From Parcubacteria group bacterium (GTDB taxonomy: Bacteria; Patescibacteriota; Minisyncoccia; Moranbacterales; UBA9337): a stretch of DNA of 64,000 bases. The stretch's first letter is position 1; each line of letters opens with the position of its first letter. The stretch spans positions 163 through 64,162 of the forward strand of contig JBAZSW010000007.1 in assembly GCA_041662245.1 (NCBI GenBank), read 5' to 3'. Shown in pieces: positions 4,131 to 38,032 of the stretch. Position numbers and translations under genes: made by a program. Under the pieces are notes generated by a model that had not been told where the DNA came from, did not search any database, and saw nothing but the letters and a program-made list of their open reading frames with translations.

Positions 4131-4260
4131 TTTTTCCAAAGAGAATTTATTCGTAACTGGATTTTACAGAAATGTAGAATCCAGTTTTTTATACAAAAAA
4201 ACACCAATTTTATTTGGCGGTTTTTTTGCTATGTGGTACGTGTTTTATATTGTATGAAAG

Positions 4261-4608
4261 TTATTTTTTCACTTCTTCCATAAATTTTTCAAATACCTCA
4301 GGGTTTTCTCCGGCTAGTTGAGATAACACTTTTCTATCAAGCTCAATGCTTTTATCTTTTAGAACTTTGATAAATTTGCTATAGGATAATTCAAATTTTC
4401 TTACAGCATTGTTTAATCGGATAATCCAAAGTCCTCGCATAGTCCTTTTCTTAGTTCTCCTATCTCGGTAAGCATATTTCCCCGCTTTCAGAAGGGCTTC
4501 TTTGGCTGCTCTAAAATTAGTACTTCTTCTCCATTTAAAACCTTTAGTTAAGGCTAGAACATTTTTTCTTCTTTTATTGGCGGAAACACCGCGTTTTACT
4601 CGTGTCAT
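4261..4608 (-). CDS. rplT: 50S ribosomal protein L20
   Basis: MTRVKRGVSANKRRKNVLALTKGF...RDRRTKKRTMRGLWIIRLNNA is the canonical L20 sequence. Confidence 0.95.
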   Translation of the reverse strand: MTRVKRGVSANKRRKNVLALTKGFKWRRSTNFRAAKEALLKAGKYAYRDRRTKKRTMRGLWIIRLNNAVRKFELSYSKFIKVLKDKSIELDRKVLSQLAGENPEVFEKFMEEVKK

Positions 4609-4611
4609 TGT

Positions 4612-4694
4612 TTTAGTAACTAGTAACTAGTAACTAGTAACTAGTTTTCAGAAATTAAATTACTGATTACCGATTACTGATTACTGGTTACTGC
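4612..4694. repeat. Heptamer-repeat inverted pair in the rpmI-rplT spacer: (TAACTAG)x4 then (ATTACTG)x5, which can fold as a long imperfect hairpin in the mRNA
   Basis: gtaactagtaactagtaactagtaactagt ... tactgattaccgattactgattactggttactg. The same repeat family occurs at 5503-5599, 31169-31207 and 31606-31650. Confidence 0.7.
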
Positions 4695-4698
4695 GTAA

Positions 4699-4890
4699 TT
4701 ATACTATTGCTTTTAAAATATTTTTAGCTTCTTGTCCTACTATTTCCACATCCGATCTCTTCTTTCTCTTGAGAGTACCGGTTTGTTTGGCATTAAAATG
4801 ATTTTGTTTAGTATATCTGCGTAAAACTTTCTTCCCCCCAGTTATTTTAACTTTTTTTACAAGAGATTTTTTACTTTTCATCTTTGGCAT
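4699..4890 (-). CDS. rpmI: 50S ribosomal protein L35
   Basis: MPKMKSKKSLVKKVKITGGKKVLRRY... is the canonical L35 sequence, sitting between infC and rplT. Confidence 0.9.
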   Translation of the reverse strand: MPKMKSKKSLVKKVKITGGKKVLRRYTKQNHFNAKQTGTLKRKKRSDVEIVGQEAKNILKAIV

Positions 4891-4950
4891 AAAATTTTCT
4901 TTAGATTACCTGAAATTATTATTTAAAACTTTCTATTTATCAAATTATTT

Positions 4951-5493
4951 TTATTCGGGAGCCAGTAGAATGTTAAATCCTCCCGGAAACCTCTTAACAT
5001 CTTCTTCTATTTTATGAGGAATGTCAATACTGCTTACGAATTTTCGGATACCTGCGACGGCTAAATCTTGATGAGCTTTCTCTCTCCCTCGCAAGCGTAA
5101 TTCAATTTTTACTTTGTTGCCTTTACTTAAAAACTTTTCTGTCTGTTTTTTCTTAAAAGCGAGATCATGAGCATCGGTTCTTACTCCAAGTCGGACACCT
5201 TTTACATCAGTTTTTTTCTGTTTGGCTTTATTTAAACGATCTTGTTTAGATTGACTGTATTGAAATTTTCCAAAATTGGCTATTTTGCAAACGGGAGGAT
5301 TGGTATTGGGAGAAACTTCCACTAAATCCAAATTTTTAGATTTGGCCAAAGCAAGGGCGTCTGTATTGCTCATTTCACCCAATTGCTCCTTATTTTCACC
5401 AATAACAAAAACAATTGGTGTTCGAATATACTCGTTTATTCGATAACGAGGTTTTTGTTGAGTGGGTTTTCTTTTAGTATGACGTCTTCGCAT
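4951..5493 (-). CDS. infC: Translation initiation factor IF-3 (start codon uncertain; an AUU start is possible)
   Basis: RINEYIRTPIVFVIGENKEQLGEM and C-terminal KVKIELRLRGREKAHQDLAVAGIRKF are IF-3 N- and C-domain signatures. Upstream of rpmI-rplT, as in the classical operon. Confidence 0.9.
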   Translation of the reverse strand: MRRRHTKRKPTQQKPRYRINEYIRTPIVFVIGENKEQLGEMSNTDALALAKSKNLDLVEVSPNTNPPVCKIANFGKFQYSQSKQDRLNKAKQKKTDVKGVRLGVRTDAHDLAFKKKQTEKFLSKGNKVKIELRLRGREKAHQDLAVAGIRKFVSSIDIPHKIEEDVKRFPGGFNILLAPE

Positions 5494-5502
5494 GAGATAG
5501 TG

Positions 5503-5599
5503 ACTAGTAACTGGTAATCAGTAACTGGCAATTATTTTTTTTGTATTTAGTCTGTAACATTTAACTTGTTACGAGTTACTAATTACGGATTGCTAATTA
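5503..5599. repeat. Imperfect inverted repeat of the same AGTAACT/AGTAATC heptamer family upstream of infC, with an ~35 nt loop
   Basis: tgactagtaactggtaatcagtaactggcaat ... ttgttacgagttactaattacggattgctaat. The arms are roughly reverse-complementary. Confidence 0.6.
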
Positions 5600-5600
5600 A

Positions 5601-6013
5601 TGTGGAGCTGGTGGGAATTGAACCCACGTCCAGAATTGGCTAAAAAAACATTTCTACAAGTTTATTTTATCTTTTGTTCTGTTGCAAAACAGAGTTCTGG
5701 GCTAATAAATATAAGATAAACGAACTTTATTAGTCGATCTTTCGATTAGTTTTGCCAGTTATGCGAAGGAGACATAGTTGGCTATTCTAGTGATTGACAC
5801 CGAGGTCTGCTTACTAGAAATGGGCAGTTCGATGGCTGAAGCAATTTAGGCTAAAGCAGGAGCGAAAGATGGTGCAAATGCGTTAGCAATTGCGTCTTTA
5901 GCTTTTGATATAAAGTTTGCACTTATAATCGTGTAACCGAGTTTTACGACTATTATTACTTGAGTCGACTTGCTTAGTTTTTAAAGTTCAAACTGTCGAA
6001 ACTAGACAGCCCC
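5601..6013 (-). ncRNA. ssrA: tmRNA (ssrA), standard one-piece form
   Basis: The minus-strand 5' end GGGGCTGTCTAGTTTCGAC is the canonical tmRNA start. The 3' end GGACGTGGGTTCAATTCCCACCAGCTCCA is the T-arm plus acceptor. An internal tag reading frame is visible: GCT AAA GAC GCA ATT GCT AAC GCA TTT GCA CCA TCT TTC GCT CCT GCT TTA GCC TAA, giving AKDAIANAFAPSFAPALA*. Located directly downstream of smpB. Confidence 0.85.
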
Positions 6014-6056
6014 GCCCGCATCGCTACGCGAAGCGTTGCGGGCGGGCCCGCCCAAG
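6014..6056 (-). other. GC-rich perfect 10 bp hairpin (cccgcccgca...tgcgggcggg) immediately 5' of tmRNA, possibly a precursor or processing element
   Basis: cccgcccgcatcgctacgcgaagcgttgcgggcggg. No T-run on either strand. A degenerate direct copy (ctacgcgaagtgttgtcggcgcg) lies at 6103-6127. Confidence 0.4.
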
Positions 6057-6135: not shown

Positions 6136-6585
6136 TTAATTTATATTGCGAAGAATTCTCTTCATTTTTCGAGTGGAATCTTTCTTCTTGATATCCTCGC
6201 GTTTATCGTATTCTTTTTTACCACGACCAACACCAAACTCAAGCTTGATAAGTCTTTTTTTAGTATAAACCCGAATAGGCACAAGTGTCAAGCCTTTAAC
6301 CTTGCCTTTTCCCAATAAAGACTTGATTTCCGATTTTTTAACCAATAATTTTCGAGAACGCCTAGAATCGTAACCAGTAGGATCACCTGCGAATTTGTAA
6401 AAAGGAATGTCAGCGTTGGTTAAATATAATTCATTCCCCTTAAAAGTAACAAAACTTCCCTTGAGACTAAGGTGACCAGTTTTTATGGATTTTACTTCGG
6501 CTCCTGTCAAAACCAAACCCGCCTCATATTTATCGGTGAGGGCATAATCAAAACTGGCTCGTTTGTTTACGGCGATTGTTGTCAT
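6136..6585 (-). CDS. smpB: SsrA-binding protein SmpB
   Basis: MTTIAVNKRASFDYALTDKYEAGLVLTGAEVKSIKTG...GKVKGLTLVPIRVYTKK is the conserved SmpB sequence. Confidence 0.92.
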   Translation of the reverse strand: MTTIAVNKRASFDYALTDKYEAGLVLTGAEVKSIKTGHLSLKGSFVTFKGNELYLTNADIPFYKFAGDPTGYDSRRSRKLLVKKSEIKSLLGKGKVKGLTLVPIRVYTKKRLIKLEFGVGRGKKEYDKREDIKKKDSTRKMKRILRNIN

Positions 6586-30121: not shown

Positions 30122-31168
30122 TTGATGCGTATTATGTTAGAAAAAATTAAAAAAATTAAAAAGGAGGCTATTGGCAATATAAATAATACTAATTCAATAA
30201 ATGAATTGGAAGATTTGCGCATCAATTACCTGGGTAAAAAAAGCGAATTTAATCAGATTTTAAAAGGCCTAAAGGATTTGACTGAAGAAGAGAAAAAAAA
30301 GGTAGGACCAATGGCCAATGAAGTCAAAAAAGAAATTCAAGAAACTTTAGAAAAAAGAATATTAGATTTGGAAGATTTAGTAGACATGGAAAAGGAATGG
30401 ATTGATGTAACCGCTCCTGGCAAAAAGATAAAAAGAGGACACTTACATCCTATTACTATTGTTCAAAGAGATATTGAAGATATCTTTACTTCGATGGGAT
30501 TTGAAATTGCTGATGGCCCAGAAGTGGAGAGTGAATTTTATAATTTTGATGCAGTTAATGTCCCTGCTGATCATCCTGGCCGTGATATGCAAGATACTTT
30601 TTGGATTAGTAAAGACGAGGATAGGGAAAAAGGAACAGGAACGGTTTTACGGACTCAAACCTCTTCAGTTCAAGTGCGTTATATGCAAACTCATAAGCCA
30701 CCCTTTCGCATAATCATTCCTGGCAGAGTTTTCCGTCAAGAGGCGACTGATGCTAGCCATGAGCATACCTTTCATCAATTTGAAGCTTTGGTGGTAGGAA
30801 AAAAAGTGAGTGTAGCTAATTTTCTTTATATTGCCGAAACATTTTTCTCCCAGTTCTTTGGTAAGAAATTAAATGTACGTTTGCGACCTAGTTATTTTCC
30901 TTTCGTGGAACCCGGTTTTGAGTTTGATATTAGTTGTGCTAATTGTGATGGAAAAGGTTGCAGTGCTTGCAAACAAACCGGTTGGTTGGAAGTGGGTGGA
31001 GCAGGAATGGTGCATCAAAATGTATTTGAAGCAGCTGGATATGAAAAGGGAATTTATCAAGGATTTGCTTGGGGATTTGGGCTAGAGAGACTGGCTATGA
31101 TGAAATATAAGATTGATGATATCAGACATTTTCATGGAGGGGATGTGCGGTTTACGAGGCAATTTTAG
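30122..31168 (+). CDS. pheS: Phenylalanine--tRNA ligase alpha subunit
   Basis: HPGRDMQDTFW, FRIIIPGRVFRQE, GFAWGFGLERLAMM are class II aaRS motifs 1-3 of PheS. Confidence 0.95.
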   Translation: MMRIMLEKIKKIKKEAIGNINNTNSINELEDLRINYLGKKSEFNQILKGLKDLTEEEKKKVGPMANEVKKEIQETLEKRILDLEDLVDMEKEWIDVTAPGKKIKRGHLHPITIVQRDIEDIFTSMGFEIADGPEVESEFYNFDAVNVPADHPGRDMQDTFWISKDEDREKGTGTVLRTQTSSVQVRYMQTHKPPFRIIIPGRVFRQEATDASHEHTFHQFEALVVGKKVSVANFLYIAETFFSQFFGKKLNVRLRPSYFPFVEPGFEFDISCANCDGKGCSACKQTGWLEVGGAGMVHQNVFEAAGYEKGIYQGFAWGFGLERLAMMKYKIDDIRHFHGGDVRFTRQF

Positions 31169-31207
31169 GATAGTAACTAGTAATCAGTAACTAGTAACTA
31201 GTATTAA
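31169..31207. repeat. Left arm of the heptamer (TAGTAAC)n inverted repeat flanking the four-helix-bundle gene
   Basis: gatagtaactagtaatcagtaactagtaactagtatt. It is reverse-complementary (about 29 of 33 positions) to 31606-31650. Confidence 0.75.
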
Positions 31208-31217
31208 TGTAAATGAT

Positions 31218-31589
31218 ATGAATAAAATAAATAATTTTTATGATTTGGATGCTTGGAAAAAGGGACATTTGCTGGTATTGGAGATTTATCAGATCACTGA
31301 CAATTTTCCTAGAAATGAAATTTATGGAATAATAAGCCAAATAAGGAGAGCAGCTAGTTCGATAACTGCAAATATTGCTGAAGGGTTTGCAAGATATCAT
31401 TTTAAGGATAAGATTAAATTTTATTATAATTCGAGAGGATCTGCAGCGGAGGTTCAGAATTTCTTATTTTTAGCTAAGGATTTAAACCATATTGACGAAG
31501 AAAGATTTAAAAAATTAGAAGAAAAAACAAATGAAGTTGGAAAATTAATAAATGGATTAATCCGATCAACGGAGAGACAAATAAAATAA
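31218..31589 (+). CDS. Four-helix-bundle protein of the 23S rRNA intervening-sequence (IVS) protein family
   Basis: DLDAWKKGHLLVLEIYQITDNFPRNEIYGIISQIRRAASSITANIAEGFARYHFKDKIKFYYNSRGSAAEVQNFL is characteristic of TIGR02436/PF05635 IVS proteins. Confidence 0.75.
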   Translation: MNKINNFYDLDAWKKGHLLVLEIYQITDNFPRNEIYGIISQIRRAASSITANIAEGFARYHFKDKIKFYYNSRGSAAEVQNFLFLAKDLNHIDEERFKKLEEKTNEVGKLINGLIRSTERQIK

Positions 31590-31605
31590 AAAATAATTAG
31601 TTTAA

Positions 31606-31650
31606 TCATAAATTACTAGTTACTAATTACGAGTTACTAGTTACTAACGT
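31606..31650. repeat. Right arm of the heptamer inverted repeat
   Basis: aaattactagttactaattacgagttactagttactaacg. Its reverse complement is tagtaactagtaactcgtaattagtaactagtaa. Confidence 0.75.
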
Positions 31651-31652
31651 AC

Positions 31653-34034
31653 ATGCTATTCAGTTACAATTGGCTTAAGGAATTAAGTGAAACAAAAAGA
31701 ACACCTGAAGAAATTGGAAAGGATTTAACTTTGCACAGTTTTGAGGTGGAAAAAATAGAAAAACTTGGACAAGGTTTGGAAATGGTTGTGATTGGTAAAG
31801 TTTTGGAAGTGGTTAAACATCCTAACGCCAATAAGTTAAATGTGGCTAAAGTTAATGTGGCTAAGGAAAATGAGCCTGATAATATTTTACAGATTGTATG
31901 CGGGGCACCTAATCTAGCTGAGGGACAAAAAGTACCTGTAGCTTTGGTGGGTGCAGTTTTGCCTAGTAATTTTGAAATAAAGGAAGCAGAAATTCGGGGG
32001 ATAAAATCATCGGGAATGATTTGTGCTGAAGATGAATTAGGAATTGGCGAATATCACAATGGAATTATGGTTTTAGATGAAAATGCGCCAGTAGGAGAGA
32101 AATTTGTCGAGTTTATGAATTTGAACGATAATATTTTAGAAATAGATGTCCTTCCTAATCGTGCTCATGATGCACTTAGTTATGAAGGAGTTGCACGCGA
32201 GATTGCACTTTTAGAAAAAAGAAATATTTTAAATGAAAACAAAAAGATAGCTGATGAGTTTACAGTTGATAATAATTTGAAAATTTCAATTGAAACAGAA
32301 AAATGCTCACGTTATATCGGAGCTAAAATTGTTGGCATTAAAATTATTGACTCGCCTGATTGGATTAAAAATAGATTGAGAGCTTCGGGCCTAGTTTCTA
32401 TCAACAATGTAGTTGATATTACAAATTATGTAATGTTGGAAACAGGACAACCTTTACATGCTTTCGATGCTAAAGGAATCAATGAGATAAAAGTAAAAAT
32501 GGCTAAAAATGGAGAAAAACTAGCTATTTTAAATGGTGAAGAGATAGCCCTAAGAGAAAATGATATTGTTATTACTGATGGAAACAATCCGATTGCCCTA
32601 GCGGGAGTAATGGGCGGATTGGAAAGTGGGATTGCGAATGAGACTACGGAAATTATTTTAGAAGGAGCTAATTTTGATGCGGTGAGTATCCGCAAGACAA
32701 AATATAGTCATAATATTCAATCAGATGCAGCTTATCGTTACGAGAGGGATATTGACGTTAATCTTACCGAAAGAGCAATGTTAAAAGCGCTTAAGTTAAT
32801 AATGGAAGTAACAGGAGGAGAAATAAAAGCTATCAGTGATAATTATCCCAATGAAATAAAATCTTGGGAAATTAAATTGGAATTAGAAAAAATTGCCAAG
32901 CTTTTAGGCGTAGAAATTCCATTAGAAGAAATAATTGATATTCTAGAAAAACTAGGAATAAAAGTTTCAAGAGAGGAAAATATTTTAAGTTGCTTAATTC
33001 CCACTCGGAGAATTGATTTGAAAAATCAGGAGGATTTAATTGAAGAAATTGGGAGAGTTTTTGGCTATACTAAAATTTTAACTAAACCTCTAAATGAAAA
33101 AATTCAAGCTCCTCATAAAAATGAAGAGCGAGAATTGGAAAGGGTATTGAAAGATATTATGGTTCACAGTGGTTTTGATGAAATCAAGGGATATTCTTTT
33201 TATTCACGAAAGGATGCTAAAACGCTAGGATTAAATGATGAAAATCACATATCTTTAATCAACCCCATGAATCCTGATCAGGAATTAATTCGTAGGACTT
33301 TAGTTAGTGGACTTTTGCGATCAGCTAAAAAAAGTTTAAGTTATTATGAAAATATTGCCATTTTTGATATGGGAAAAGTTTATGTTCCTAGTAGCAATTC
33401 ATTGCCTGAAGAAAAATTAATTCTAAGTGCTTTAATTGTAGAAAAAGGAAATGATGGAGAACAATTTTTTACTTTGAAGGGAGTTGTGGAAAATTTATTG
33501 ACCAAGATTAAAATTTTTGATATAAAATTTTCAGGTGAGTTTGATGAAGATAAAGAAGATGTAATATCTTTTCACCCTTCTCGAAAAGCCATTATCAGAA
33601 ATAGCCAAGGAGTAAAATTGGGAGTTATCGGTGAAATAACCAAGAGTGCTCATAAATATTTTGGAATTAAAAAAATGCGAGCTTGTGTTTTTGAATTGGA
33701 TGCAGTAGCTATGTTAAAAGAAATTACTCGCGAAAAAATTTATACGCCACTTGCTAAATTTCCAGCTGTTAATCGTGACATCTCCATGGTGGTGGATAAA
33801 AGAATGGTGACTTCAAAAGTAGCGGAGGTGATAGTTTTCTTTGGGGGAGATTTATTGCAAGATGTGACTTTATTTGATACCTTTATAAACCCTGAAACCA
33901 AAGAGCGTTCCATGGCTTTTCATCTAATTTTTGCTCATCCCGAAAGGACTTTGACTGCTCAAGAAGTGGACGATAAAATTGAAGAAATTAGTGCCAAGTT
34001 AGAAGAAGAATTGAAGGTGGTGATAAAGAAATAA
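31653..34034 (+). CDS. pheT: Phenylalanine--tRNA ligase beta subunit
   Basis: 793 aa. N-terminal tRNA-binding domain (VVIGKVLEVVKHPNANKLNVAKVNV), B3/B4, B5 and FDX-ACB regions. Confidence 0.93.
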   Translation: MLFSYNWLKELSETKRTPEEIGKDLTLHSFEVEKIEKLGQGLEMVVIGKVLEVVKHPNANKLNVAKVNVAKENEPDNILQIVCGAPNLAEGQKVPVALVGAVLPSNFEIKEAEIRGIKSSGMICAEDELGIGEYHNGIMVLDENAPVGEKFVEFMNLNDNILEIDVLPNRAHDALSYEGVAREIALLEKRNILNENKKIADEFTVDNNLKISIETEKCSRYIGAKIVGIKIIDSPDWIKNRLRASGLVSINNVVDITNYVMLETGQPLHAFDAKGINEIKVKMAKNGEKLAILNGEEIALRENDIVITDGNNPIALAGVMGGLESGIANETTEIILEGANFDAVSIRKTKYSHNIQSDAAYRYERDIDVNLTERAMLKALKLIMEVTGGEIKAISDNYPNEIKSWEIKLELEKIAKLLGVEIPLEEIIDILEKLGIKVSREENILSCLIPTRRIDLKNQEDLIEEIGRVFGYTKILTKPLNEKIQAPHKNEERELERVLKDIMVHSGFDEIKGYSFYSRKDAKTLGLNDENHISLINPMNPDQELIRRTLVSGLLRSAKKSLSYYENIAIFDMGKVYVPSSNSLPEEKLILSALIVEKGNDGEQFFTLKGVVENLLTKIKIFDIKFSGEFDEDKEDVISFHPSRKAIIRNSQGVKLGVIGEITKSAHKYFGIKKMRACVFELDAVAMLKEITREKIYTPLAKFPAVNRDISMVVDKRMVTSKVAEVIVFFGGDLLQDVTLFDTFINPETKERSMAFHLIFAHPERTLTAQEVDDKIEEISAKLEEELKVVIKK

Positions 34035-36966: not shown

Positions 36967-37156
36967 CAAATAGTAATTTGCTCAATTTCAAATTTTGAAT
37001 TTAAAATTTCCAATGAATTTCTAATGGATAAATGATTGAATTTAAGAAAATAAAATTTGATAATACATTTTAAAATAGTTAATAAATATAATTAAATAAA
37101 CATTAAAAATTATAATTTGATTCGAAATTCAAAACTCGAAATTCAAAATTATTTCA

Positions 37157-38032
37157 ATGATTATGCAAAAAATAAAAAAAGCAATTTTACCCGTTGCCGG
37201 ATTTGGAACTAGGTTCCTGCCGGCTACTAAAGCTCAACCCAAAGAGATGTTACCAGTAGTTGATAAACCCGTAATTCAATATTTAGTGGAAGAGGCAGTG
37301 GCTGCGGGAATTGAAGAAATAATTTTTGTAACTGGACGAGGCAAAAGAGCGATTGAAGATCATTTTGATAGCTCCTTTGAGTTAGAATACAATTTAGTAG
37401 AGAAGGATAAAAAAGATTTATTAGAGGAAGTAAGGAGAATATCGGGCTTGGCTAAATTTTCTTACGTAAGACAATCTCAGCCATTGGGCGATGGTCATGC
37501 AATTTTACAAGCCGCTCATCTTGTTGGAGATGAGCCTGTGTTGGTTATATTTGGAGATTGCCTCTATGATAGTGAGGTGCCTGCTTCAAGACAATTGATG
37601 GATACTTTTGAAAAATATGGTGACCCAGTTATTGGATTAAGCGCCATAGAAAAGAAGGATGTGTCAAAATTTGGAGTAATCGACGGAGTGGAATTAGATG
37701 AACATACTTGGGAAATTAAAAAAATGGTAGAAAAGCCAAAAGTTGAAGAAGCACCTAGCAATCTAGTGGCTGTAGGAAAATATATTATTACGCCGAGTGT
37801 TTTTGAAACATTAGCTAATATGAAACACGGTAAATCGGGCGAAATTAGATTAGCCGATGCTTTCGATATAATGTTAAGTGAAAATAAACCATTGTATGGG
37901 AGAATTTTAGAGGGAGCGTGGTTGGATACTGGTAATAAAATTAATTTCATGAAAGCAGCCATTCATTTAGGACTAAAACATCCGGAAATAAAGGATGATC
38001 TTAAAAAATATTTAAAGAGTTTGGGTATTTAA
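37157..38032 (+). CDS. galU: UTP--glucose-1-phosphate uridylyltransferase
   Basis: KAILPVAGFGTRFLPATKAQPKEMLPVVDKPVIQYLVEEA is the GalU N-terminus. Confidence 0.9.
   Translation: MIMQKIKKAILPVAGFGTRFLPATKAQPKEMLPVVDKPVIQYLVEEAVAAGIEEIIFVTGRGKRAIEDHFDSSFELEYNLVEKDKKDLLEEVRRISGLAKFSYVRQSQPLGDGHAILQAAHLVGDEPVLVIFGDCLYDSEVPASRQLMDTFEKYGDPVIGLSAIEKKDVSKFGVIDGVELDEHTWEIKKMVEKPKVEEAPSNLVAVGKYIITPSVFETLANMKHGKSGEIRLADAFDIMLSENKPLYGRILEGAWLDTGNKINFMKAAIHLGLKHPEIKDDLKKYLKSLGI

Follow-up and report, generated by a model that had tools for sequence, protein, structure and literature searches.

Inverted heptamer arrays in operon spacers of a Parcubacteria group bacterium share a unit family with the arms of a PF05635 cassette

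In the genome of a Parcubacteria group bacterium, a member of the candidate phyla radiation (CPR), spacers between genes of the translation apparatus hold opposed tandem arrays of a 7-nt repeat, and the question raised by these loci is what kind of element the arrays form and at which level it might act. The arrays lie in a 64,000-nt stretch of DNA (GenBank assembly GCA_041662245.1, contig JBAZSW010000007.1, positions 163–64,162; hereafter the window) at three places: between rpmI and rplT (hairpin A), between the transfer-messenger RNA (tmRNA) gene and infC (hairpin B), and between pheS and pheT (cassette C). A previous, sequence-only reading had offered two explanations, namely a lineage-specific form of autoregulation by ribosomal protein L20 or empty processing stems like those of the intervening sequences (IVSs) of rRNA. 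To judge from their sequences, A and B are members, lacking an open reading frame (ORF), of an IVS-type element family whose full form is cassette C.

Opposed heptamer arrays and a PF05635 cassette

The arrays are built from the 7-nt unit YNGTAAY, which reads TAACTAG or TTACTGA in other registers. Tandem Repeats Finder (TRF) assigned them a period of 7, with 4.1–5.0 copies per arm in the window. In the rpmI–rplT spacer it resolved (TAGTAAC)×4.6 at 4614–4645 (100% matches) and (ATTACTG)×5.0 at 4659–4693 (89% matches), which bears out the earlier description of this spacer as a pair of opposed heptamer arrays. The helix with a mismatch at every seventh position that had been predicted from them was also recovered, as on the transcribed minus strand hairpin A folds into four 6-bp blocks with one C·A mismatch between blocks (−24.9 kcal/mol, z −3.3; for the spacer alone, −24.4 kcal/mol, z −5.1). 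Upstream of infC, TRF reported a looser array at 5498–5532, and its partner at 5568–5599 was recognized by reading the sequence; the looser inverted pair described at this place is thus present, with a weaker fold (z −2.0). A role for the hairpins as intrinsic terminators was considered and rejected, given that the stems are AT-rich, that no U-tract follows A or B, and that a terminator scan placed the terminator-like site of the operon elsewhere, at 4219–4202 after rplT.

The two-unit pattern TAGTAACTAGTAAC, searched with at most two mismatches, gave 18 matches in the window versus 0.34 expected, a number reached in none of 100 shuffles. All 18 were confined to three loci (4614–4693, 5498–5599 and 31171–31646), and a search for GTAAY cores in 7-nt register returned the same six arrays and none other in the 64 kb. 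The placement of the elements is tight: A, B and C fill their whole spacers, beginning 5, 0 and 2 nt past the upstream stop codon or RNA end and stopping 5, 4 and 6 nt before the next AUG, respectively.

The pheS–pheT copy, which the sequence-only reading had counted with the others, is not a hairpin but a 476-nt cassette, the arms of which lie 410 nt apart and enclose an ORF. This ORF belongs to the Pfam family PF05635 (23S_rRNA_IVP; the gene is hereafter called IVP), is co-directional with pheS and pheT, and is the single PF05635 gene in the window. Its product matched one PDB entry, 2GSC (E 2.5e-14), which is XCC0516 of Xanthomonas, and weakly matched bAvd (Pfam PF22296). The two arms pair with each other, and the resulting ~35-bp stem closes off the ORF (−100.7 kcal/mol, z −4.4). 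Cassette C therefore has the anatomy of an rRNA intervening sequence inside a protein-coding operon. Complementary termini are found in A, B and C, a sense PF05635 ORF in C alone, and insertion into rRNA in none of the three. Because A and B share the unit family YNGTAAY with the arms of cassette C, they are ORF-less versions of its stem. As to identity, the description of the hairpins as empty IVS-like stems is thus upheld: their unit family is that of arms enclosing a PF05635 gene, and genuine 23S rRNA IVSs have heptamer arms, as described below.

Within hairpin B, the A-rich part of the loop matches the last IVP codons and the sequence after the stop codon of cassette C at 22 of 25 positions, a weak resemblance (p ~0.007 for its own cassette, p ~0.055 after searching 26 cassettes). 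The idea that the hairpin loops are remnants of a deleted IVP gene was left as suggestive only, in view of that p of ~0.055 and of the loops of relatives, which gave nothing significant.

Period-7 arrays beside PF05635 genes

In a protein-seeded sample of 80 metagenome PF05635 loci (IVPs 37–75% identical), period-7 self-similarity of at least 0.8 flanked 54% of the IVP genes, and 29% on both sides; with periods 5, 6, 8 and 9 as a control, the values were 0–4% for either side and 0% for both. Downstream flanks carried a period of 7 at 44% of the IVP genes versus 6.9% of the other long ORFs of the same loci. The unit varied by locus (GTAATnn, CAGGGGT, CAGGATT, AGAAGAT, CAAGACT and others), and in each locus the downstream arm was the reverse complement of the upstream arm, with 82% complementarity over a median of 34 nt. 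In 31 of 41 cases no more than 24 nt separated the end of the downstream array from a co-directional start codon, and in 31 of 52 no more than 27 nt lay between a co-directional stop codon and the beginning of the upstream array; the upstream neighbour was co-directional with the IVP gene in 57 of 61 cases, versus 29 of 36 control gene pairs.

The same heptamer-flanked layout was present in plasmids of cultured bacteria, at 10 of 10 loci inspected among 27 matching records. One of these, on plasmid AZO_p2 of Azospirillum lipoferum 4B (NC_016586.1, 13692–15439; locus L235, L numbers being our own labels), has its PF05635 ORF within a gene for 23S rRNA (Rfam LSU, 1132 bits), where GGACAGA/GGACGGA heptamers flank it as CAGAGGA CGGATGA CAGAGGA CGGAGGA and, on the opposite side, ATCCGTC CTCTGTC TTCTGTC ATCCGTC. 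It is a classical 23S rRNA IVS with heptamer arms, and its architecture is shared by the elements of the window. The gene table of PLSDB is empty over this stretch; as it holds no RNA genes, a 23S entry is not to be expected there. In Coxiella, three GACAGAT repeats, variable in number between strains, stand just upstream of the S23p ORF of the IVS, and the first of them is the site of the 5′ cut (PMC4990558). Together, these results, from 77 metagenome loci and 10 plasmid loci with the Azospirillum IVS among them, indicate that PF05635 genes are characteristically accompanied by inverted period-7 arrays, whether they stand in rRNA or in ordinary operons. No paper in the literature searched, which lay outside subscription journals, makes a general connection between PF05635 and heptamer arrays.

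Two of the plasmid loci place the IVP gene between cas6 and cas4 of a CRISPR–Cas operon. In Anabaena sp. 90 (pANA02; L231) the arms are ACAGGTG/CACCTGT, and in Pseudanabaena galeata (pPg_01; L232) AAAAGCT×15 stands upstream and AAAAGCC×10 downstream; the Pseudanabaena arrays are direct, not inverted, and form an exception to the inverted rule. A phage origin of the IVP was not indicated, as no homologue was found in 50,697 phage records.

Arrays without the gene are far more common than cassettes. An array-seeded scan for four GTAAY units in register, with one genome per species, returned at least 120 loci in Cyanobacteria, Bacteroidota, Chloroflexota, Planctomycetota, Acidobacteriota, Verrucomicrobiota, Nitrospirota and CPR. 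Among the matches listed, an IVP gene lay within 8 kb in 7 of 120 loci and was adjacent in 4, a proportion that rules out an IVP beside every array and implies that most arrays are ORF-less. Of 135 GTAAY arrays among the matches listed, from many phyla, 87% were intergenic, and many of them lay within 15 nt of a start codon. Of the 135, 18 fell inside long ORFs, with the RTTAC strand nearly always the coding one. In one such case, a Kuenenbacteria metagenome-assembled genome (MAG; PFBP01000013.1, L051 2213–2245), a 33-nt array of ATTACAG/ATTACGG×5 stands in frame within lgt (Pfam LGT, E 8e-59) and adds ~11 residues.

The tie between array and protein raises the possibility that the arrays are putative binding sites of the PF05635 protein. 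A homopentameric ring of it would contact some five GUAAY cores at 7-nt intervals, in the way that the TRAP ring recognizes its spaced triplets. With one arm bound, the hairpin would be opened or closed, and translation or processing of the gene 4–6 nt downstream would thereby be controlled; the ORF-less hairpins would form a small regulon of a single IVP gene. Several observations fit: 2GSC is described as a toroidal homopentamer (PMC4990558); in GTAA-type cassettes the 5′ arm most often has five units (12 of 24), and the arms of the window have 4.1–5.0; each unit is an invariant core of 4–5 nt with 2–3 free positions; and the related bAvd, to which the window IVP shows its weak PF22296 match, binds nucleic acid as the partner of a reverse transcriptase. 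The arrays also stand right against start codons, a position shared by the TAACTGA repeats, for which binding by some protein has been proposed (PMC4679880). The unit also tracks the protein, as IVPs at least 52% identical to that of the window all have GTAA-type units and more distant IVPs have other units, and all three window loci share the unit of the resident IVP. This agreement, however, is equally explained by joint inheritance of gene and arms as one cassette. Moreover, one genome can hold units unlike those of a nearby IVP (L011, L057, L119 and L221), the arrays of Xanthomonas prefer four units and not five, and the scarcity of IVP genes near GTAAY arrays noted above also speaks against a dedicated binder. 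We regard this reading as doubtful, although it is the strongest of the alternatives.

Conservation of the elements and their possible action

Synteny is the same at both places in a Moraniibacteriota MAG (loci L121/L122 and L215), which served as the comparison genome, its 4-fold degenerate sites, 46% identical to those of the window (dS ~1), providing the neutral yardstick. Hairpin A is 82% identical between the two genomes, hairpin B 91% (with both arms 100% identical, 74 of 74 positions matching L215) and the 3′ side of cassette C 89%, values far above the neutral one, so that the elements are evidently kept and are not junk; ordinary spacers are 60% (infC–rpmI) and 54% (smpB–tmRNA) identical. 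The IVP gene has a dN/dS of 0.077 relative to its syntenic orthologue, compared with 0.040 for rplT, 0.052 for pheS and 0.110 for rpmI, and is by this measure under strong purifying selection. Selective constraint on gene and stems is in this sense established. L121 (9933–10000) exceeds the window (31169–31217) by two or three units in the 5′ arm of the cassette, the 3′ arm of which is 89% conserved; the two arms of cassette C evolve at different rates between these genomes.

Hairpin A recurs at the same site and with the same loop in L215, L216/L217 and L219 (L20 90% identical in L216/L217 and 87% in L219), and hairpin B recurs in L215, L219 and L221; the fold z scores of the recurring hairpins range from −2.9 to −5.1. 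In other relatives the spacer holds something else. L221 has heptamer hairpins of an AACAT-type unit in both the infC–rpmI and the rpmI–rplT spacers, L218 and L220 encode an L20 identical to that of L219 (P0130) with an rpmI–rplT hairpin built instead on a 15-nt unit (CCTAAAAAGCTACGA×2), and L223 and L225 have other hairpins in the rpmI–rplT spacer. Hairpin B is missing where a small GIY-YIG gene stands after the tmRNA gene and abuts infC. From these comparisons, a stem-loop in these spacers appears to be persistent and its sequence replaceable, which favours a role of the structure or of the motif array and disfavours mimicry of a fixed rRNA site.

This bears on the idea that the hairpins are a lineage-specific L20 operator, which would mimic the L20 site of 23S rRNA and repress its own operon. 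One hairpin precedes infC and one precedes rplT, and at such places E. coli and Bacillus have L20-dependent control or rpmI–rplT translational coupling. However, the Rfam L20_leader model (RF00558) gave no match at the gathering threshold or at E ≤ 10, and at pheS–pheT an unrelated gene stands between these same arms. The IVP cassette of L123, with TAGTAAT/CAGTAAC arms, is located between an NHL-repeat gene and a MerR-type gene, and in a Bacteroidales MAG (L018) a GTTACTA arm ends 6 nt before an unrelated ATG. Relatives with 76–87% identical L20 (L218, L220, L221, L223 and L225) have other units or hairpins at rpmI–rplT, which is unlike the behaviour of a mimic of a conserved rRNA site. L20 autoregulation, one of the two explanations first put forward, is on these grounds extremely improbable. 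An operon-specific interpretation in general fails as well, since the arrays also occur in or beside unrelated genes (at the NHL-repeat/MerR, Bacteroidales and Kuenenbacteria lgt loci); that the arrays all stand in spacers of translation-apparatus operons is true of the three loci of the window and untrue of the wider family.

The same comparisons speak to a neutral origin, in which the arrays would be selfish or neutral repeats without host function, either heptamer microsatellites born of slippage or decayed remnants of mobile IVP cassettes. The arms have been homogenized separately, the 3′ arm of A consisting of 4.6 perfect copies and the other arm of another variant, from which the periodic mismatch results, and this points to slippage and not to maintenance of pairing. 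Orthologues vary in copy number and in their unit variants; L218 and L220 share the L20 of L219 and not its spacer; hairpin B is absent where the GIY-YIG gene occupies its site; the B loop weakly resembles the 3′ end of the IVP ORF; and over-representation of heptamers has been ascribed to polymerase slippage (PMC4692102). Weighing more heavily, in our view, are the conservation far above neutral at dS ~1 (74 of 74 positions in the B arms, and 89% versus 46% on the 3′ side of C), the tight and reproducible placement near stop and start codons at three window loci and in 31 of 41 cassettes, and the persistence of a period of 7 across phyla while the unit changes completely. We therefore consider a purely neutral origin unlikely.

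Action at the level of DNA, as a cruciform or slipped structure, as a site of recombination or replication, or as the terminal repeats that move a cassette, is less likely still. A gene with inverted repeats at either end recalls a transposon, an origin long suggested for IVSs (PMC4990558), non-B DNA has been proposed for the heptamers of Xanthomonas and Nostoc (PMC4692102), and a comparison of wobble pairs with A·C mismatches, given below, showed no preference for the sense strand. The cassette, however, has no transposase or recombinase, and no target-site duplication is visible at A, B or C. The AT-rich unit is unable to form a G-quadruplex. Cassettes are co-oriented with the upstream gene in the 57 of 61 cases noted above and stand in sense orientation inside 23S rRNA; as a DNA-level element need be neither, this orientation bias counts against such a role.

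The stem most likely acts at the RNA level. The reading that we favour, with somewhat better than even confidence and by analogy with rRNA IVSs, is that it forms in the polycistronic transcript and serves as a substrate of RNase III; the IVS stem of Coxiella is cut by RNase III in vitro (PMC4990558). The transcribed arms would fold into an imperfect stem of ~28–35 bp, the base of which would place the end of one unit beside the beginning of the following one. Cleavage by RNase III would segment the smpB–ssrA–infC–rpmI–rplT and pheS–IVP–pheT transcripts, freeing the tmRNA 3′ end from infC, separating rplT from rpmI, excising the IVP mRNA from between pheS and pheT, and leaving the downstream gene with a short leader. 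If uncut, the stem would mask the 30–40 nt just upstream of the next AUG, and translation of the downstream gene would then require cleavage, or else ribosomes coming from the gene before it. Such masking would be the kind of rpmI–rplT coupling through mRNA structure that is seen in E. coli.

Several observations weigh against an RNase III stem under RNA-level selection or are neutral towards it. A signature-motif scan found no RNase III gene in the 64-kb window, a result that bears on this part of the genome alone. The fold of hairpin B reaches −19.6 kcal/mol, which 6 of 200 shuffles equalled, and the stems are imperfect, with one C·A mismatch per 7 nt in A and 2-nt internal loops in other copies. 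The GTAA core of each unit is invariant and the variable positions are paired in 51–64% of cases, which recognition of a motif would explain equally well. Wobble pairs numbered 66 versus 52 A·C mismatches (p 0.23), with no sense-strand bias, a difference too small to separate selection on the sense RNA from selection on the DNA or on a binding motif. Covariation in hairpin A over four orthologues was nil (term +1.19, one compensatory pair in 27), in an alignment that is uninformative on this point. The complementarity of variable positions between arms in unit order was 180 observed versus a permuted mean of 182, a comparison without power because the units within an arm are too alike.

The features are collected in Table 1. 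The window is AT-rich (32.6% G+C) and contains no rRNA according to Rfam; no transposase was noticed in the regions of it that were read or annotated, which hold a minority of its ORFs. By crude gene calls, a Shine–Dalgarno-like motif precedes 8 of 68 window genes, and leaders are AU-rich; the absence of such motifs after the hairpins is therefore unremarkable in this organism, and the notion that the arrays substitute for a missing Shine–Dalgarno sequence was rejected on the same count.

Table 1 Arms, loops and neighbouring genes of elements A, B and C (window positions)
Feature	Position	Strand	Details and basis
Hairpin A 5′ arm (mRNA), (CAGUAAY)×5	4659–4693	−	Starts 5 nt past rpmI stop; TRF, fold, sequence
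Hairpin A loop, UUUAAUUUCUGAAAA region	4646–4658	−	Near-identical in orthologues L215 and L219
Hairpin A 3′ arm (mRNA), (CUAGUUA)×4.6	4614–4645	−	Ends 5 nt before rplT AUG at 4608; TRF 100%, fold
Hairpin B 5′ arm, UAAUUA GCAAUCC GUAAUUA GUAACUC GUAAC	5568–5599	−	Starts at first base after tmRNA 3′ end (5600); 100% identical in L215
Hairpin B loop	5533–5567	−	A-rich part resembles cassette C end
Hairpin B 3′ arm, AUUGCCA GUUACUG AUUACCA GUUACUA GUCACUA	5498–5532	−	Ends 4 nt before infC AUG at 5493; TRF, fold; 100% identical in L215
Cassette C 5′ arm, (TAGTAAC-type)×4.7	31171–31203	+	Starts 2 nt past pheS stop; TRF, sequence
PF05635 gene, 123 aa (23S_rRNA_IVP; 'four helix bundle protein'/'S23 ribosomal protein')	31218–31589	+	Pfam E 5.2e-38
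Cassette C 3′ arm, (TTACTAG-type)×4.9	31613–31646	+	Ends 6 nt before pheT AUG at 31653; TRF
rplT (L20)	4261–4608	−	Pfam; downstream of hairpin A
rpmI (L35)	4699–4890	−	Pfam; upstream of hairpin A
infC (IF3)	4951–5493	−	Pfam; downstream of hairpin B
tmRNA gene (ssrA)	5600–6013	−	ARAGORN; Rfam 114.6 bits; directly upstream of hairpin B
smpB	6136–6585	−	Upstream of ssrA
pheS	30122–31168	+	ORF; syntenic L121 gene is Pfam tRNA-synt_2d; upstream of cassette C
pheT	31653–34034	+	ORF; synteny with L121; downstream of cassette C

That the unit upstream of hairpin B is a tmRNA gene goes beyond the sequence-only reading. The gene does not encode the 3′ CCA (window 5598–5602, ...GCUCCAC A UUAAUU), and hairpin B follows directly after the discriminator base; the relatives L216 and L220 read ...CUCCACCACG and ...CUCCACCGCG here. 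At 6014–6056, a G+C-rich 10-bp hairpin (CCCGCCCGCA...TGCGGGCGGG), unusual at 33% G+C, abuts and overlaps the tmRNA 5′ end. In relatives, GIY-YIG ORFs of 81–88 aa stand before or after the tmRNA gene (L216 395–661, L219 1248–1493, L220 1893–2150 and L221 696–941); small mobile genes seem to have a hot spot at this locus. Elsewhere in the window, the 190-nt spacer 36967–37156, before a gene at 37157, has GAATTTN-type repeats at its 5′ end and (TCGAAATTCAAAAC)×1.9 at its 3′ end, stopping 6 nt before the ATG; it may be a second inverted 7/14-nt array with another unit, the fold being weak (−23 kcal/mol over 194 nt).

Wider meaning and known systems

IVS elements of rRNA were already known, as were operon-spacer pairs of inverted heptamers, and PF05635 ORFs have been recorded in rRNA insertions of CPR bacteria (PMC11270868); new here are the CPR host of the operon-spacer elements, their mRNA and tmRNA contexts, and the AT-rich unit. 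Two puzzles of about 30 years' standing, the role of the ORF in rRNA intervening sequences and the tandem heptamers beside genes in Nostoc, Xanthomonas, Beggiatoa and Bacteroidetes, have their features side by side in the window, in one small CPR genome. It is tempting, though at present a speculation that we hold with low confidence, to see PF05635 as the partner of bacterial heptamer repeats, with a pentameric ring that binds, and perhaps helps to propagate, arrays of ~4–5 heptamers, so that IVP cassettes and ORF-less hairpins would form a widespread system in operon spacers and rRNA helices that sets RNA processing or downstream translation. If this were true, the short tandemly repeated repetitive (STRR) sequences, the TAACTGA and GGGAATC repeats and the rRNA IVSs would gain one common explanation. 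A general link between PF05635 and heptamers, if it holds genome-wide, would in itself offer a testable handle on both the IVS protein and the repeats. The CPR unit is AT-rich and forms no G-quadruplex, and heptamer arrays at large cannot owe their existence to that structure. In gene prediction and operon modelling of CPR genomes, spacers of this kind should count as structured elements and not as noise.

Among known systems, the L20 leader (RF00558) and the E. coli rpmI operator share with the window elements a position in the infC–rpmI–rplT operon and differ in having no sequence or structure match to them; the window elements are not operon-specific and their sequence is not conserved where L20 is. 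Repetitive extragenic palindromes and bacterial interspersed mosaic elements (REP/BIME) are likewise short imperfect palindromes in transcribed operon spacers, but they have no 7-nt periodic arrays and are tied to RAYT transposases, not to PF05635. 

The elements fit the heptamer-repeat class in having head-to-tail 7-nt arrays that are intergenic and near the stop and start codons of co-directional genes. YNGTAAY is not identical to a described family, being one or two positions off TAACTGA and unrelated to GGGAATC and CCCCAGT. STRR sequences of heterocystous cyanobacteria are also tandem heptamers abundant in intergenic DNA, and cyanobacterial plasmid PF05635 genes are flanked by such arrays, although the literature presents STRRs as direct arrays, dispersed and employed for fingerprinting; in the papers searched we found no link between STRRs and any protein family. 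TAACTGA repeats occur in Beggiatoaceae, Cyanobacteria and Bacteroidetes as arrays of 2–6 copies that end a few nt before start codons, including those of ribosomal-protein operons and upstream of pheS; the genes that follow lack a Shine–Dalgarno sequence, and a binding protein of unknown identity has been proposed (MacGregor 2015, PMC4679880). Their heptamer is nearly that of the window, one or two positions from TAACTAG/TTACTGA, but they are overwhelmingly single direct arrays, with one inverted pair in 170 sets, whereas the window arrays are inverted pairs.

The GGGAATC heptamers of Xanthomonas are closer in layout, with ~70 inverted pairs that prefer four units (Rehm et al. 2015, PMC4692102). 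These pairs are convergent, 36–67 nt apart, and stand in spacers such as groES–groEL, atpA–atpG and gltB–gltD; the arrays are positionally conserved between species and transcribed (PMC4692102). Like the window elements, they form inverted arms of about four units in co-directional operon spacers, a few nt from the upstream stop codon; unlike them, they are G-rich and have been read as G-quadruplex formers, a structure that the AT-rich CPR unit cannot adopt. The authors drew no link to PF05635 (PMC4692102). In row 15 of their S2 Table A (PMC4692102), a 4-unit array at 622956–622983 of X. campestris ATCC 33913 stands 6 nt behind bccP (XCC0517) and extends over the annotated start of XCC0516, which encodes the PF05635 protein of PDB 2GSC; on this the paper is silent.

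Closest of all are the 23S rRNA IVSs of the Leptospira/Coxiella type and of Azospirillum. The window elements differ from them in standing between protein-coding genes or after tmRNA, outside rRNA, and in two of three cases in having no ORF; IVSs without an ORF occur in Salmonella, according to work cited in PMC4990558. RNase III excision is demonstrated for rRNA IVSs, and for the window elements it is what we propose. The likenesses are a sense PF05635 ORF enclosed by complementary termini that form a stem of ~28–35 bp, arms of tandem heptamers (GACAGAT in Coxiella (PMC4990558), GGACAGA/GGACGGA in Azospirillum), and an element that replaces a connection whose loss the host RNA tolerates.

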